A DNA stretch of 63,890 nt, filler included. It is 17 parts of 17 records of this genome, joined end to end, with 100 filler letters (N's around TTAATTAATTAA, not from the genome) between each part and the next. Parts side by side here need not be neighbours in the genome. Positions count along the whole stretch, not along the records: positions 59,192 to 61,213 come from SRR11831580_6541; 16 more parts are not named here. One strand, written 5' to 3'. The notes below the pieces were generated by a model that saw nothing but the letters and a program-made list of their open reading frames with translations, ran no database searches and was not told the origin of the DNA. Positions 5,751-63,890 of the stretch are shown here, one piece after another; position 1 is the stretch's first letter; each line of letters starts with the position of its first letter. Made by a program: the position numbers and the translations under genes.

Positions 5751-5884
5751 NNNNNNNNNNNNNNNNNNNNNNNNNNNNNNNNNNNNNNNNNNNNTTAATT
5801 AATTAANNNNNNNNNNNNNNNNNNNNNNNNNNNNNNNNNNNNNNNNNNNNATGGTCGCGTTTTTACGTCTCGTTGAATAACGAA

Positions 5885-34470: not shown

Positions 34471-34604
34471 NNNNNNNNNNNNNNNNNNNNNNNNNNNNNN
34501 NNNNNNNNNNNNNNTTAATTAATTAANNNNNNNNNNNNNNNNNNNNNNNNNNNNNNNNNNNNNNNNNNNNTGTACAAGGGGACGACAACTCCCACCACCC
34601 GTAC

Positions 34605-37262
34605 CTCCAACACCGTGTCGCTGTTCACGTGCGAGGCAGACGCCATACGCTGCTGCTGCACCTGCTCATCCAGCTGCGACACACGGTCCCGCAAAAGCTG
34701 TTCCAGAGCTTTCGAGGACTCGAGCTCTGCCCCGAGCACCGCCATTTTATCGCGAACGGCCGTCGTATGGGAGGCGGTCTCGTGATGCATGGCGTCCATG
34801 TCCTGCACATGCTGAATGGTGGTCTCCAGAGCTCGGTCCACATGCTCAAGGCGGGCTTCGGCCTCACGAAGACGCCGCTGCAAAATCGAATCAACGTAAG
34901 ACGATAAGGTTCAGCATTACGGGCACCCAAACAGCATACATACCCACAAACACACCCCGACTCACGAATACAGACACACGCACACATGCAAACAACCTTC
35001 CCTCCCCCTCTCATGCTGGCACACATGCCTCGTACGGGTCTAGCTTGGACAGCACAATATTGGGCAGCTGCAGCTTGAGCTGGTTTTCAAAAACCTCCTC
35101 AATGCTGTCCTGCACCTCCGCCCGTATCGCGTCCTCATGCATGCTGCGTGATTTGTTGGCCTCTGCTTGAACGAACTCGATCAATGCGCGGCGCTCGCTG
35201 TCTCGACTTTCTGTTTGTTCTTCGACGTTCGCACGCAGATCGTAGATGACCGTCTCAAGCGCTGCGACTGCTTTTGTGCGTGCGCTTTCCTATGAAGAGC
35301 AAGATACAATAAGGAAGGGAAATATACGGAAATCCATTTGAAGACAACGAAGAAAGCAGAACGAACCAAGTAACAGAAAGAGAACGCAGAGCAAGCGAGA
35401 ATCAGGAAGGGAGGGATTATATTATGGTAAAGCTTTTGAAGATGGGAAACGGACAGGGAGGCAGGACGAACAAAGAGACAGAATGCGAACCAAACACGGC
35501 GATTTCATACTGTAAGACCAGCAGCGAGGCACACACAAACAAAATAACGAACATAAAGTTGGAACAAGTGTCCAACACAACACGGACTCCGCGCGTACTT
35601 CCTGTGATATCTTGGACATCAACTTCTCTGACAACAATGTGCGTTGGCGTGCGTTCTCGCGATCGGATTTGACGCGTTCCTTGCTCTCACTGTCCACCAG
35701 TTTCTATATACAGTACGGCAAGTGAGTACGGCGAAGAAGACAACAATTAATCACAACACAGGTAAAGAAAAGAAGGCCTCAACCACTGCGTTAATAATCA
35801 TAGGCACCGTAAGCCACTGCATTTACACACACACAAAACACCACACACCCATGCGTAAATGAATATCACCTTTTTCAACAACACACGCAGACCAATTGTC
35901 TACCTTGACACTATCGATGTCCGTGGCATAAACACTCAGCTTCGTGTCCATCTCTTTCAATCTGCGCGCCACCGCCAGCTGCTGCGCGGCAGTTTCCTTC
36001 GTTGTTTTCTCATCCAGTTTCAAGGAGGCCTGTACACGCATACACACAGCACACAAATTAGCAGCATTACCAACCTCAAAATACAGGGGTATCCTTTCGA
36101 AATAGTAGCACAAACACACAAGACTCTCTCGACACCATTGTTGATGATGTACATGTATACGGCTCAACGCAACACAGCGACGTACGGTATCCAGCATCCG
36201 TTGCTGTTCGTCCATGCGCTTGCTGAGTGAGTCCATCTGTGCGATAATCTCTGGGGGCACTTCCACTTTCTCCGCCCGACTCGCTAACCGCCCGTCCTGC
36301 ACAGCAAACCGCGTAAACGATCCTGATTACTGCACCCTTGCACCGAAACGCACCAACCACACTACAGGGTTCCATGACACACAACATCACCACTTGCGCA
36401 ACAAAACACGCATTACAACGCACACGAGCTGACGTACCGGTTTCTCATCTGCGTTGAGCTCCTTCAGCGCAAACACAAGACACCGCGTCACCTGCTCCTC
36501 CAGTTCATTGCATTTGAGCTGCAGCGGGTGGATGGTCTCCTCTTTCATGCGCCGCACTTCGGAACGCAACTCTTGCAACGCGTTCTATACGCAAACGACG
36601 TTACAACCAGAATCACAAAAGGCAGAGACACGAAACACGCATCTCTCTCCCTCTCTCTCTTGACATAACACAACAATCCAAGAAAAAACATACAGCTTGC
36701 TCGATGTCTTCAGCCGGTGACCCAATGCCCTTCTCCAACACAGCAGTACGCCGGGCCTGCGCCGTCGATAGACTCTTCTGAAGTCGTTCGAACCTGCACA
36801 GCCAAAAAAAACCCCTTAGAGAAATGAAGATACGTGAACTGGCATTGCGGCATCCATATGCAGATACATATACGCAGATAAGACACACAAGCAGAAAGCA
36901 CTTGTACCTCGAGTTCATCACAGAGATAGCGGCTTCCTTGATATCTGACAGTCGTTCATTCATGCGATCCGTTTTACCTTTCAACTGCGAGCAGCACACA
37001 AATACAATTTATCAAACACACAATCCCTCGCGTCCTACCCCGGAACACGCGCATGCAATGTACAAACATAGACGCGGAGCACACACTTGCATGCGTGCAC
37101 ACACATACCATACACAGATACACACACATAGACATACACACACATACACACAAACGCACCTGTTCTTCAAGCTGTCTTCGTGCGCGATGCTCATCTTGCA
37201 AAGCGTCTGCCAGAGACTGACAAGTACGTTCCAAACTGACAATACGCTCCTCCACGGACAGC
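34605..37262 (-). CDS. internal part of a eukaryotic multi-exon coiled-coil protein (both ends missing)
   Basis: manual exons 37262-37160, 36984-36908, 36793-36694, 36584-36438, 36296-36186, 36029-35904, 35703-35599, 35289-35029, 34877-34605 join into one open E/K/R/Q/L-rich frame. Confidence 0.8.
37080..37155. repeat. imperfect (CA)n/(TG)n microsatellite inside an intron
   Basis: ACACACATACCATACACAGATACACACACATAGACATACACACACATACACA. Confidence 0.75.
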
Positions 37263-37470
37263 CTACGCATACACACACACAGGTTAAATTACAAAAACAA
37301 CAGCAATGACGCCAACAGTAAGGCAGGCAACACTGCGAAATGCAAACACAGCAGCTGTAAATGATNNNNNNNNNNNNNNNNNNNNNNNNNNNNNNNNNNN
37401 NNNNNNNNNTTAATTAATTAANNNNNNNNNNNNNNNNNNNNNNNNNNNNNNNNNNNNNNNNNNNNCCCCC

Positions 37471-59191: not shown

Positions 59192-61213
59192 AAGGAGCTG
59201 TTGAGGGGCGAACCAACCGGGGAGCCCGCCCGCGGGGGTACCTTGGTGCCTACCCAGACAAAGCATGTAAGACGCGGTACGTGACGCGATCACATTCATG
59301 CCGCGAGGAGGAAGAAGGAGAGGAGCGTACCGTATCGAATGCGCAGTTTGCTCTGAACGGCCTCTTTACAAAGCGGGCACTTTCCCACCACTCTTTGCTC
59401 CACGCACTCGCTGCAGAAGGCAAAGTGTCCGCACGGCACCAGCGCAAACTTGATTGGCAGCACGTGACACATCACACATGATATCTAGAAACAACAGGAC
59501 GTGTGAGTCATCACAATCTACACAGAAACCCCGTAGATCACGATTTCCGCTCACGTCATACGGTGTTGTCAGCATGTACGCGTAACTGCATACCCCTTCG
59601 TCCGCTCCGGCATCTTTATGGTAAATCCGCGATCCTTTGAACCATCGGCCCGAGCTGGACATAGGCGTTGTCTCTCGCTGTGTGAGTGATGCAGCAAACC
59701 GCAGTGTAGCTAGTGTGTCTGGCACAGCGCTCTGAATAGGGGAGATGGTTGCGACCAGCGAGATGTGCGAGGATGTCTGGAGGAATGATTTCGCCAGCCT
59801 GTGCATACAAATGTTCACTCGTCATACGCGCAGCCAACGGCAGGGGCAAGACTGTGCATACAACTAGATCATACGCAACGTTAAACCGTTCTGTGCGCAC
59901 AACATACCACAACAGAGTATCCGCATGCACGGGGAGCACGGCCTTCTTCGCATCTACCATCTGCACCACACCTCTCAGCACTTTCTCCACATGCGGCTCA
60001 TCCGCAGCGGAACTGGTTGTCGCGGCCGTTCGAGTTCGCTCGGGGGAGGGCAGCCTCTGTGAAGCGTACAACATGTTAGAAAACATCTGTACGCACACAG
60101 ATTACATGTAGAACCGAGCATGCTGATTCATTGTAAATGATCAAATATACAAACTCAGGCTCACGAAAGTGGTCTGTACGCACAAGGATGGCCGTACCGT
60201 TGGGGAAGGTGCTCTGACGCAGTCCGATGGCCGAGAAATATCGATGAAAGCAACCTGACACGTCTTGGTCCCCTGCAGACGTTAAGAAGGCACGCATTAG
60301 AACGCGACACATGCATAGCGGCTCTAAAACCACCTCCGCCTCCTTCAACGTACCGCTTTGCCCTCGTTCGCAGTGGAAAACGAGACAGTCATAATGTTGT
60401 TAACTCGCACGGCTGATGCCACCTTACGCGCTCGTGCAGCAATTTCGTCAAATTGAGTCACAGATTCCACTTGTATTCTGCAGACGTACGCGGATAATCA
60501 ATTACAGTGCGACGATCTCGACACTTCGGTAAAAATGATATAAGGAAGACAGATATCTATGCTGAACGTACTTGGTGACTTGCTCTATGACAGTGCCGCG
60601 GAAGGATTCTCTTACCAGCACCTGCGTCTACACACGCACGCATCACCATTAAGTTGTTGTGCTCAATGAAGAGTGAGCCTCCCCTGAAACAAGACGTACC
60701 CGCGGCTTGGGGTTCAGCAGGTCCAATACCATTTCACCATCTACACCCAGATGCGTCACCTCCGCTTTGAACTTTGTGTGCCCCGCAAAGACACAGAACA
60801 TTCCCTCAAATACGAGACTGGCCAACCCGCGACGCTGAGATGCGCAGGACTCAGAGCCCCACAGGCACACGTCCTGCCCAGAACCTGCACCTCCGTACGC
60901 TACAATTGCGTGGTTCACCCCTGCAAGCTCAAAGCTGAGCGACGTACTCACACAAACGAGGGGGCAGTTGCGTACCTTTGGTGAGATCATTCAACACGGA
61001 CGACACCAAAACACTCCGGTCACGCTCCATCAGCTGGAACGCCTCACCGATGCCGGTGAGATCGATCACACGCTCGAACTGAAAGTAGTCCTCCTTCCCT
61101 ACACATGTTGTTATGATGTGATTCATCGATTTGGAGCCGAAAGGCATACCGGTTGCGGCAGTTACTGTGAATACTCCATTCGCACATGTGTTCCAATCTT
61201 GTCCGCTTTCTCC
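59192..61213 (-). CDS. eukaryotic multi-exon gene: degenerate kinesin motor domain followed by a C3HC4 RING finger (both ends missing)
   Basis: manual exons 61213-61150, 61098-60976, 60920-60700, 60627-60572, 60477-60354, 60272-60198, 60086-59908, 59798-59594, 59484-59331, 59249-59192; nine GT-AG introns, one continuous open frame. Confidence 0.82.
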
Positions 61214-61313
61214 NNNNNNNNNNNNNNNNNNNNNNNNNNNNNNNNNNNNNNNNNNNNTTAATTAATTAANNNNNNNNNNNNNNNNNNNNNNNNNNNNNNN
61301 NNNNNNNNNNNNN

Positions 61314-62404
61314 AAAACTTTTTCAAAAAAGCGGCGGCGCACGGGGAGGAACCTCCTTTAACTCCTCAAAACGAACATCAGCGGTCCGGGCTGCGCTTCG
61401 CCCGTCGCGTCAGACTACCCCGTGCGGTTGGCCTGGCTGGCATGTTCTTACCGATTGCTTCAACGCTGGTTTCACACCCGCCGCCGGGCTGGTGGTGGCT
61501 GGTGTTGGTCGGCTGGGCGTTCGTCTGGCCGCATTTAGCCTGGCAGATAGCGAGCAGGGCCGTCGATCCGCTTAGCCGGGAAATTTACAACTTAAAAACC
61601 GATGCAGTATTAGCGGGAATGTGGGTAGGCGTAATGGGCGTAAACGTGCTGCCTTCCACCGCGATGTTGATGATTATGTGTCTGAATTTGATGGGGGCAG
61701 GCGGCCCCCGTCTGTTTGTCGCGGGTCTGGTGTTGATGGTGGTTTCCTGCCTTGTCACCCTCGAGCTGACGGGCATTACCGTGTCGTTCAATAGTGCGCC
61801 GCTGGAATGGTGGCTCTCCCTTCCCATTATTGTCATTTATCCTCTGCTGTTTGGCTGGGTCAGCTACCAGACGGCAACCAAACTGGCGGAACATAAACGC
61901 AGGTTGCAGGTCATGAGTACCCGCGACGGCATGACGGGCGTGTATAACCGACGTCATTGGGAAACTATGTTACGCAATGAATTTGATAACTGTCGGCGGC
62001 ATAATCGCGATGCAACGTTACTGATTATCGATATCGACCATTTCAAGAGCATCAACGATACCTGGGGCCATGATGTGGGCGATGAAGCGATTGTGGCGCT
62101 TACCCGACAGTTACAAATTACCCTGCGCGGTAGCGATGTGATTGGTCGGTTTGGCGGCGATGAGTTTGCAGTAATCATGTCCGGTACGCCAGCTGAGAGC
62201 GCCATTACCGCCATGTTACGGGTGCATGAAGGGCTAAATACATTACGTTTGCCGAATACGCCACAGGTAACTTTACGGATTAGTGTGGGGGTTGCGCCGC
62301 TGAACCCACAAATGAGTCACTATCGTGAGTGGTTGAAATCGGCAGATTTGGCGCTTTACAAAGCAAAGAAAGCCGGACGTAACCGCACCGAAGTGGCGGC
62401 CTGA
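61314..62404 (+). CDS. dgcC: diguanylate cyclase (MASE2-GGDEF), 5'-truncated
   Basis: GGDEF with RGSD I-site; convergent with proC (yaiC/adrA). Confidence 0.95.
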
Positions 62405-62420
62405 CGTCCGGCGAAAGTCA

Positions 62421-63230
62421 TCAGGATTTGCTGAGTTTTTCTGATTTTTCCATACACTTCGTCATCGCTTCGATCACTGCAGCACGGAAGCCTTTCTCTT
62501 CCAGTACGCGTACCGCTTCAATGGTGGTGCCTCCCGGTGAGCAGACCATATCTTTCAGTGCCCCCGGATGTTCTCCCGTTTCCAGCACCATTTTTGCGGA
62601 ACCCATTACCGCCTGAGCGGCAAATTTATACGCCTGGGCGCGTGGCATCCCGCCCAGCACGGCGGCGTCGGCCATCGCTTCGATAAACATAAATACGTAG
62701 GCTGGCGAAGAACCGCTCACACCGACCACCGGGTGGATCATCGGCTCAGCAATTACTTCCGCTTCGCCAAAGCAGCGGAAAATATTCAGCACATCAGCGG
62801 TATCTTCTGGGGTTACCAGCGCGTTTGGCGTTACGGAGGTCATCCCGGCATTAACCAGTGCGGGAGTGTTCGGCATGGCGCGGATAATTTTCCGGTCATG
62901 GCCCAGCGCGCGGGCAAGCTGGTCGAGCGTGACACCTGCAGCAATAGAAACGACCAGAGAGTCTTTATTCAGGCTGGAGGTGATTTCGCTAAGCACTTTA
63001 ATCATGATGCCAGGTTTAACGGCAGCAAAAATGATGTCGGCGATTTGCGCCACTTCTTGCGCCGATTCTGCGGCGTTGATGCCGAACTGGTCATGCAGGG
63101 CGGCGACTTTATCCGGGGAGGGGGTGTATACCCAGATTTGCCCTGGAAGCACCTGACCGCTGGCAATCAGACCGCCGAGAATGGCTTTTCCCATATTGCC
63201 GCAGCCAATAAAACCGATTTTCTTTTCCAT
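62421..63230 (-). CDS. proC: pyrroline-5-carboxylate reductase
   Basis: GCGNMG, RAMPNTP, SPGGTT; 269 aa. Confidence 0.98.
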
Positions 63231-63349
63231 TGCCTCACTCCTGCCGTGAAATTCATTGTTTTGATAATCGCTGGCAGAAGCATAAACAGAACTATGCCGG
63301 AAGGCAAAAGCGCGACACAATAGAGGATTACCCAACAAAGGATGACTTT

Positions 63350-63808
63350 ATGACAATTTGGGTGGATGCCGACGCGTGTCCCAATGTAATTAAAGAGATT
63401 TTGTATCGCGCGGCGGAACGTATGCAGATGCCGCTGGTACTGGTAGCAAACCAGAGTTTACGCGTGCCGCCATCGCGATTTATTCGTACGCTGCGCGTCG
63501 CGGCAGGTTTCGACGTTGCCGATAACGAAATTGTCCGGCAGTGTGAAGCGGGCGATTTGGTGATCACCGCAGATATACCTTTGGCTGCTGAAGCCATCGA
63601 GAAAGGCGCTGCGGCGCTTAATCCGCGCGGCGAACGTTACACGCCAGCGACCATTCGTGAGCGCCTGACGATGCGCGATTTTATGGATACCTTACGTGCC
63701 AGTGGGATCCAGACCGGCGGACCAGATAGCCTTTCACAACGTGACCGCCAGGCCTTTGCCGCGGAGCTGGAGAAGTGGTGGCTGGAAGTGCAACGTAGTC
63801 GTGGCTAA
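63350..63808 (+). CDS. yaiI: YaiI/YqxD (DUF188) family protein
   Basis: [11 protein letters not shown]; 152 aa. Confidence 0.94.
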
Positions 63809-63809
63809 A

Positions 63810-63827
63810 TGTAATTTATTATTTACA
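63810..63827. promoter_or_regulatory. TyrR box of the downstream aroL promoter
   Basis: TGTAAT-N6-TTTACA versus consensus TGTAAA-N6-TTTACA; aroL follows yaiI in E. coli. Confidence 0.75.
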
Positions 63828-63890
63828 CTTCATTCTTGAATATTTATTGGTATAGTAAGGGGTGTATTGAGATTTTCACTTTAAGTGGAA

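Follow-up and report, generated by a model that had tools for sequence, protein, structure and literature searches.

A eukaryotic gene fragment with a predicted join between a kinesin-like domain lacking nucleotide-site motifs and a nearby RING finger

Kinesins that carry a RING finger and kinesin folds without catalytic activity are both already known. In plants, group B of the kinesin-7 family combines a RING region with a typical KISc motor domain and, in most members, a coiled coil, according to the account of this group in a wheat survey (PMC11660758), and a survey of wheat RING-type E3 ubiquitin ligases includes, in its treatment of domain composition, a group of three proteins with a coiled coil and KISc (PMC8169666). 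In yeast, Vik1 and Cik1, which form heterodimers with Kar3, contain non-catalytic kinesin motor-homology domains, according to PMC4338441 and PMC3384419. Here we describe a fragment of a eukaryotic gene at positions 59192-61213 of a stretch of 63,890 nucleotides (nt), referred to throughout as the window, whose minus strand encodes a kinesin-like domain devoid of the motifs of a working nucleotide site and, about 32 residues behind its last helix in the predicted splice form, a complete RING finger. We think it reasonably probable, judging from sequence comparison, that this is part of a genuine gene and that its product is a RING E3 ubiquitin ligase with, as its second recognisable domain, a non-catalytic kinesin fold. 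The gene had been proposed in an earlier note on this DNA, called the original prediction below, and the RING-bearing plant kinesin-7 mentioned there is in print, at least in the part of the wheat survey that covers the group (PMC11660758).

The arrangement resembles that of the plant proteins in that a kinesin-superfamily domain would lie N-terminal to a RING in one polypeptide. It departs from kinesin-7 group B, as that survey portrays the group with its typical KISc domain, because the nucleotide-site motifs are absent here and the linker of about 32 residues contains no coiled coil. Its likeness to Vik1 and Cik1, as they appear in the two yeast papers, would lie in the use of a kinesin-fold domain lacking a working nucleotide site as a binding module. 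What is apparently new is the combination of a motif-less kinesin-like domain with a RING at close range. In Vik1 and Cik1 the domain is C-terminal to a coiled coil, pairs with the catalytic Kar3 head, is accompanied by no RING and resembles kinesins mainly in structure; the domain described here, in contrast, is recognisable from its sequence and is followed by a 32-residue linker and the RING. KIF26 (kinesin-11) and Costal2 are ATPase-deficient members of the kinesin family; they are long, lack a RING and serve as scaffolds, having lost motility. The likeness to them would be that of a kinesin-derived, non-motile protein, and the difference is the RING present here. Full-text literature searches turned up no account of a kinesin-like domain that lacks these motifs and is fused to a RING over a short distance. 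The main text of the largest survey of architectures, Wickstead et al. 2010 (PMC2867816), contains neither 'RING' nor 'ubiquitin' (0 occurrences each); the 105 kinesin architectures, tabulated in additional files beyond that main text, may bear on novelty.

Gene model and kinesin homology

Rebuilding and re-reading the gene on the minus strand gave ten exons and nine GT-AG introns (51-141 nt) in a stop-free frame of 407 codons, and the peptide landmarks were all located as the original prediction had placed them. Its claim of an intron-bearing eukaryotic gene is supported. Both contig ends truncate the gene, the next putative exon being cut after 58 nt; the locus is an internal gene fragment of 9-10 exons with a product of at least 407 codons. 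Its features, in window coordinates, are as follows.

61150-61213, minus strand: exon 0, 5′-truncated by the contig end; donor CCG/GTATGC
60976-61098, minus strand: exon 1b, with YFQFERVI at 61064-61087, the counterpart of kinesin beta3 FxFDxVF
60700-60920, minus strand: exon 2, P-loop region through beta4, with GGAGSGQD at 60871-60894
60572-60621, minus strand: exon 3; a second in-frame acceptor lies 6 nt upstream, at 60627
60354-60477, minus strand: exon 4, alpha3 to beta6, with ASAVRVNN (60396-60419) at the place expected for switch I SSRSH
60198-60272, minus strand: exon 5, a beta7-like hydrophobic run and then DISRPS (60225-60242); placed by splice sites and frame only
59908-60056, minus strand: exon 6, a Pro/Ser/Thr-rich loop and then an alpha4/L12-like stretch, with RLPSPE at 60039-60056
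59594-59798, minus strand: exon 7, the alpha5-beta8-alpha6 end of the motor (SHISLVATISP...TLATLRFAA, 59690-59770) and a linker of about 30 residues
59485-59593, minus strand: intron 8 (predicted), 109 nt, GTATGC...TTTCTAG, between the motor and RING exons
59331-59484, minus strand: exon 8, a complete C3HC4 RING, C1 to C8 at 59368-59478
59192-59249, minus strand: exon 9 (putative), 3′-truncated by the contig end; alternatively, read-through from 59331 gives 11 further codons to a stop at 59296-59298

The splice signals are uniform: all nine donors read GTAYG and all acceptors YAG. GTAYG occurs 18 times on the minus strand of the contig and 6 times on its plus strand, the 18 sites comprising the 9 donors, 8 positions inside introns and 1 in an exon. 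Exons have a guanine-plus-cytosine (GC) content of 56% and are G-rich at the first codon position; introns are T-rich, with 48% GC. The two longest open reading frames (ORFs) on the plus strand of the contig match no Pfam family, and no competing gene was seen on that strand. Intron 1 (51 nt) is in frame and stop-free and could be retained, and the frame would also survive the skipping of exon 5 (75 nt, phase 0-0). In several introns a stretch containing TACG or TAAC lies 8-10 nt before the YAG (for example GTACGTCTGCAG, TAACGTCTGCAG and TACGCTTCACAG; intron ends at 60478-60489, 60273-60284 and 60057-60068, minus strand) and may be a very close branch-point signal of the organism.

When paths were sought by dynamic programming, every one of 100 dinucleotide shuffles gave an open end-to-end GT..AG path with at most nine introns, and so did the real plus strand. 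The open frame by itself is therefore no evidence of a gene, and the real, independent evidence is homology. The donor consensus tells more than the frame: an end-to-end path through GTAYG..YAG introns was found in none of the 100 shuffles and not on the plus strand, with a motif that was defined after the model had been seen.

Scored exon by exon, the Pfam Kinesin family (PF00225) matches exon 2 with 24.5 bits over profile positions 75-145 and exon 7 with 19.6 bits over positions 289-324. The two matches are colinear, and the roughly 133 residues between the matched blocks fit the 142 profile positions that separate them. The alignment of exon 2 to KIF13B spans the P-loop, and language-model features of the same exon (Atlas) gave a kinesin score of 0.95, with 27 of 30 matches in the kinesin set. 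Exon 7, compared with the PDB, returned kinesins in all 14 of its matches at E<=10, which are weak (best E 0.07). A profile of three sequences (A1), made of exon 2 and the two environmental fragments P0001 and P0003 described below, reached kinesins among solved structures at E 1.5e-7; of the 99 sequences at E<=1, the best 60 are all kinesins. The top matches of A1 are the kinesin-3 members KIF13B and KIF1A, with CENP-E ranked far lower, in a signal too short for phylogeny.

Giant-virus kinesins served as a second reference. ORFs were collected from IMG/VR by P-loop pattern, 24 of them with an intact P-loop, SRSH and DxxGxE; all four that were tested are Pfam Kinesin (101-207 bits), and a local profile was built from 23 distinct motor domains. 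Against this viral-kinesin profile the spliced product scored 31.0 bits, compared with 0.4 for the best of 200 shuffles, and the alignment covers model residues 54-174, across three junctions (exon 1b/2/3/4), and 247-314, across one (exon 6/7). To apportion the score, single exons were shuffled 200 times and the product was rescored: for exon 2, for exon 7 and for exons 3+4, which add about 7.5 bits, no shuffle (0/200 each) reached the real score. When all 2219 ORF pieces from the window were compared with the profile, E fell below 0.1 for just two, those containing exons 2 and 7. The kinesin-like domain of the original prediction thus gave kinesin matches in each profile check (Pfam on single exons, with scores below the gathering score; A1 against the PDB; and the viral profile). 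At the level of sequence, a kinesin-homologous domain is present and its homology established, with the two ends well supported and the middle assumed.

Loss of the nucleotide-site motifs

Active kinesins have a Walker-A motif GxxxxGK[ST], typically GQTGSGKT, a switch I SSRSH and a switch II DxxGxE (DLAGSE), and hydrolysis in P-loop nucleoside triphosphatases needs Lys and Ser/Thr in Walker-A, Ser/Arg in switch I and Gly/Glu in switch II. In the P-loop of exon 2, GGAGSGQD, a residue-for-residue comparison with KIF13B puts Gln in place of the Walker-A Lys and Asp in place of the Ser/Thr. Beyond the aligned RKVAS, the switch I loop reads AVRVNN and is 6-7 residues shorter than in viral kinesins. 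Two stretches are candidates for switch II, DISRPS and RLPSPE, and its Gly is kept in neither. Searches for GxxxxGK[ST], for an SSRSH-like pattern (SS?R[ST]H) and for DxxGxE found none of them, either in the spliced product or in any of the contig's six frames, so there is no alternative exon with an intact motif. Because the Walker-A Lys/Thr, switch I and switch II are lost, the domain is predicted to be unable to hydrolyse ATP in the kinesin manner.

Relatives of this region are few. A HMMER search with exon 2 against 1.84 billion representatives gave three matches at E<=0.001, two of which, P0001 (87 amino acids, aa) and P0003 (127 aa), are short environmental ORF fragments from other sources, listed as 'jgi' and 'ena'. 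Their identity to exon 2 is 40% and 38%, respectively, in the alignment (39% and 41% over the stretches matched by phmmer), and both run into an intron at exactly the end of exon 2. The P-loop of these orthologue fragments reads GGPNGGHE and GAVNSGQG, respectively, with Lys/Thr missing in both; of the three losses reported in the original prediction, that of the P-loop is thus seen beyond the locus itself. Across the three sequences only 2 of the 8 P-loop positions are invariant, and the flanking positions AYG, LWG and FK.E..H...GE.V.D.L are the same in all three. A divergent P-loop between invariant flanks reads as the signature of an old catalytic loss with the fold kept, as expected of a maintained pseudoenzyme, and a P-loop loss common to two environmental fragments suggests a maintained family and not a one-off.

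The third match, P0002 (1015 aa, repetitive), was aligned to query residues 2-30 only and was set aside as unrelated. Among longer proteins exon 2 had 24 candidates, all with E above 0.01, and exon 7 compared with proteins of near length gave no candidate. From near-length proteins A1 retrieved P0001 and P0003 alone, which come from contigs of 1098 and 747 nt, and a locus search with A1 gave 597 pattern matches in metagenome contigs, 150 in genome contigs and 61 in viral contigs, none of which was confirmed.

Two alternatives concern the fate of the catalytic site. That the protein is an active motor with an unorthodox nucleotide site is very improbable: the glycine-rich shape of the P-loop (G.xGSG) is retained, but the residues required for hydrolysis are all absent and the loop varies among the three orthologues. 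We also regard it as quite unlikely that the locus is a decaying pseudogene, a formerly active kinesin-RING gene from which selection has gone. The 407 codons in ten exons contain no stop or frameshift, the nine consensus splice-site pairs are intact, and the RING described below keeps its eight ligands and scores well above threshold; set against this are the loss of all three catalytic motifs, a mid-domain that is unrecognisable and, in the exon 2 search of 1.84 billion representatives, the lack of a close annotated relative. In the two fragments of about 40% identity the exon boundary, the open reading frame and the structural positions are all preserved, and the P-loop residues differ among the three sequences, a combination that argues for an old loss followed by maintenance.

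The giant-virus reference set also provided an observation on switch II. Of its 24 kinesins, 15 have DLAGCE instead of DLAGSE and 3 have DLGGNE or DLCGNE, all with an intact P-loop and SRSH (IMG/VR loci L007, L009, L017, L020, L028, L038, L072, L076, L079, L097, L098, L100, L103, L106 and L115). Their switch I-to-switch II spacing is about 10 residues below what we take to be the spacing of cellular kinesins.

The RING finger and its join to the kinesin-like domain

Exon 8 (59484-59331) matches zf-C3HC4_3 (PF13920) with 42.8 bits, against a cut-off of 27, over profile positions 4-48 of 49. All eight zinc ligands are present, with spacings of 2-11-1-3-2-8-2, which satisfy the RING-HC consensus C-x2-C-x(9-39)-C-x-H-x(2-3)-C-x2-C-x(4-48)-C-x2-C. 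The nearest solved RINGs are those of MEX3C (E 7.5e-7, 32.2 bits), XIAP, cIAP1/2 and CGRRF1, which are active C-terminal RING E3s. By these features the exon 8 product is a bona fide RING-HC finger. C1 is followed by an aliphatic residue, C7 by Pro and C8, at the end of the CP.C box, by a basic residue; the exon thus keeps the residue classes that we take to contact the ubiquitin-conjugating enzyme (E2), and the RING looks, from its residues, able to recruit an E2.

The ligand pattern and spacing are those of the IAP/MEX3C/CGRRF1-type RING (zf-C3HC4_3), and the PCGH core is common to the MEX3C and XIAP chains. Solved chains of the MEX3C/XIAP type end 2-3 residues past the aligned region, whereas here the frame runs on: it either meets a stop after 11 codons or crosses a consensus intron to an exon that is cut by the contig end. 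The N-terminal partner differs as well: IAP/MEX3C-type E3s have BIR or KH domains, in contrast to the predicted kinesin fold here.

The reading frame of the RING opens at its acceptor, the preceding stop TAG containing the acceptor AG, and there is no ATG before C1; the RING exon can therefore not begin a gene and must be spliced to coding sequence further upstream. The exon 7 donor, 109 nt away, is the nearest phase-compatible one and has the same consensus as the other eight. Spliced in this way, the motor-like domain and the RING would belong to one polypeptide, with about 32 residues, free of coiled-coil character, between the last motor helix (TLATLRFAA) and C1. The original prediction had both a complete C3HC4 RING and this distance right. 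Its further placement of the RING in the neck position stands as regards the roughly 32 residues behind the motor and is weakened by the contig end, 58 nt into the next putative exon.

A different explanation is that the locus combines two neighbouring genes, or that the contig is chimeric, and that the in-frame join 59594/59484 is a coincidence. Frame-keeping GT..AG joins are easily obtained by chance, as the 100 of 100 shuffles indicate, the orthologue fragments stop short of the RING, and small contigs from low-coverage assemblies can be chimeric, as the 2-kilobase (kb) one here may be. We nevertheless consider this unlikely: the 109-nt gap has a GTAYG donor and a pyrimidine-rich YAG acceptor like those of the eight further introns, the frame of the RING requires a coding exon upstream on the same strand, and the donor of exon 7 is the closest that keeps the phase.

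The risk of chimerism is one of several points that weigh against a real gene joining a non-catalytic kinesin fold to a RING. Every junction, 59594/59484 included, was read from genomic sequence alone. As both gene ends are missing, the protein may have additional domains and its RING may lie internally. The relatives found number two, both single-exon fragments that are uninformative on the RING. On the kinesin side, both Pfam Kinesin matches are under the gathering score of 29.3 bits, and exons 1b, 4, 5 and 6 taken singly have no Pfam Kinesin match, nor exon 4 alone any match in the PDB. Model residues 175-246 remain unaligned to the viral-kinesin profile, so the fold of this mid-domain is assumed. 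In the single-exon shuffles, exons 6 and 1b were marginal (4/200 and 11/200 reached the real score), and exon 5 had no measurable kinesin similarity (106/200). The placement of switch II is ambiguous as well. DISRPS in exon 5, the remnant named in the original prediction, stands behind a beta7-like hydrophobic run and fits the spacing of about 25 residues that we assume for kinesin-1; hmmalign prefers RLPSPE, at the start of exon 6, against the shorter viral spacing. Of that earlier claim the loss of the motif stands, and the position, in an exon without kinesin similarity, does not stand firmly. Finally, several of the L12/alpha5 residues that we take to contact tubulin are changed, as seen by eye, and microtubule binding is uncertain.

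Contig context and biological meaning

The window consists of 17 contigs (2.0-12.0 kb) joined by 16 identical 100-nt spacers (positions 2150-2249, 5751-5850 ... 61214-61313), each made of 44 N, TTAATTAATTAA and a further 44 N, and gene adjacency across these spacers is biologically meaningless. The surroundings of the gene are as follows.

59092-59191, no strand: artificial spacer of 100 nt, N44 + TTAATTAATTAA + N44, toward the Escherichia coli pheST contig
59192-61213, no strand: complete contig of eukaryotic nuclear-type DNA, 2022 nt, GC 53%, bounded by spacers on both sides
61214-61313, no strand: artificial spacer of 100 nt, N44 + TTAATTAATTAA + N44, toward the E. coli adrA/proC contig

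The contig of the gene has no counterpart in any of 5426 complete E. coli genomes; its longest ORF is at most 161 aa, and GTAYG is enriched on its minus strand (8.9 per kb). To the left, the contig at 56009-59091 shows 100% identity over pheS/pheT to K-12 derivatives of E. coli, and the right neighbour (61314-63890) is of E. coli K-12 type, with 100% identity over adrA/proC/yaiI, two chromosomal loci that are distant from one another in E. coli. The E. coli part of the record resembles a laboratory K-12 strain. A gene hidden within a bacterial genome was rejected because of the artificial spacers and the non-adjacent E. coli loci on the two sides. The word 'hidden' in the original prediction was accordingly misleading, as the contig is alien to the E. 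coli DNA on either side and is connected with it by artificial spacers only. Positions 59192-61213 are a whole small contig of eukaryotic nuclear DNA, the adjacency to E. coli is an artefact of concatenation, and the record is a mixture of E. coli and an aerobic eukaryote.

Three further contigs of the window are of note. The contig at 26890-29165 is a second eukaryote-like one, with no ORF above 144 aa and no match in complete E. coli genomes; its minus strand contains a COX5B exon (44.1 bits) that ends G/GTACGT, and its plus strand an ORF with an AN1 zinc finger (41.2 bits). The COX5B donor is of the same type as the donors of the kinesin-RING gene, and the contig is probably from the same organism. 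A third eukaryote-like contig, 34571-37365, has no long ORFs, no E. coli match and a minus-strand GTAYG density of 5.7 per kb; it shows exon-sized ORFs of coiled-coil character and TG/CA-rich stretches, and no Pfam family reached threshold in it. The contig at 43072-45935 (GC 43%) has a single 865-aa ORF matching Usher (527 bits), PapC_N and PapC_C, which is an ordinary bacterial fimbrial usher. Annotators of this record should beware of E. coli K-12-type and eukaryotic contigs mixed behind artificial spacers.

As a RING E3 ubiquitin ligase, possibly the microtubule- or kinesin-targeted one of the original prediction, the protein would dock through its kinesin-like domain and so bring the RING to its substrates. 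By analogy with Vik1/Cik1 and the ATPase-deficient kinesins, the kinesin-like domain is probably a docking module that needs no nucleotide; its partner would be microtubules or tubulin, or else a kinesin-binding partner, and microtubules or tubulin may be the target. The practical value is limited for now, the gene being incomplete. If the join is real, the protein would unite a non-catalytic kinesin fold and a ubiquitin-ligase domain in compact form, as a pseudoenzyme of the kinesin superfamily used for targeting and not for movement, and it would offer a natural handle on directing ubiquitination to microtubule-associated substrates. Possible, though doubtful at present, is a wider picture in which a conserved and as yet unannotated protist family of 'pseudokinesin E3 ligases' has, since the loss of its P-loop, long kept an ATP-independent kinesin fold that reads the microtubule lattice or free tubulin, or captures a kinesin partner, so that the RING some 30 residues away ubiquitinates tubulin, motors or other microtubule-bound proteins. 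If true, this would be a direct fusion of a reader of the cytoskeletal track with a writer of ubiquitin.

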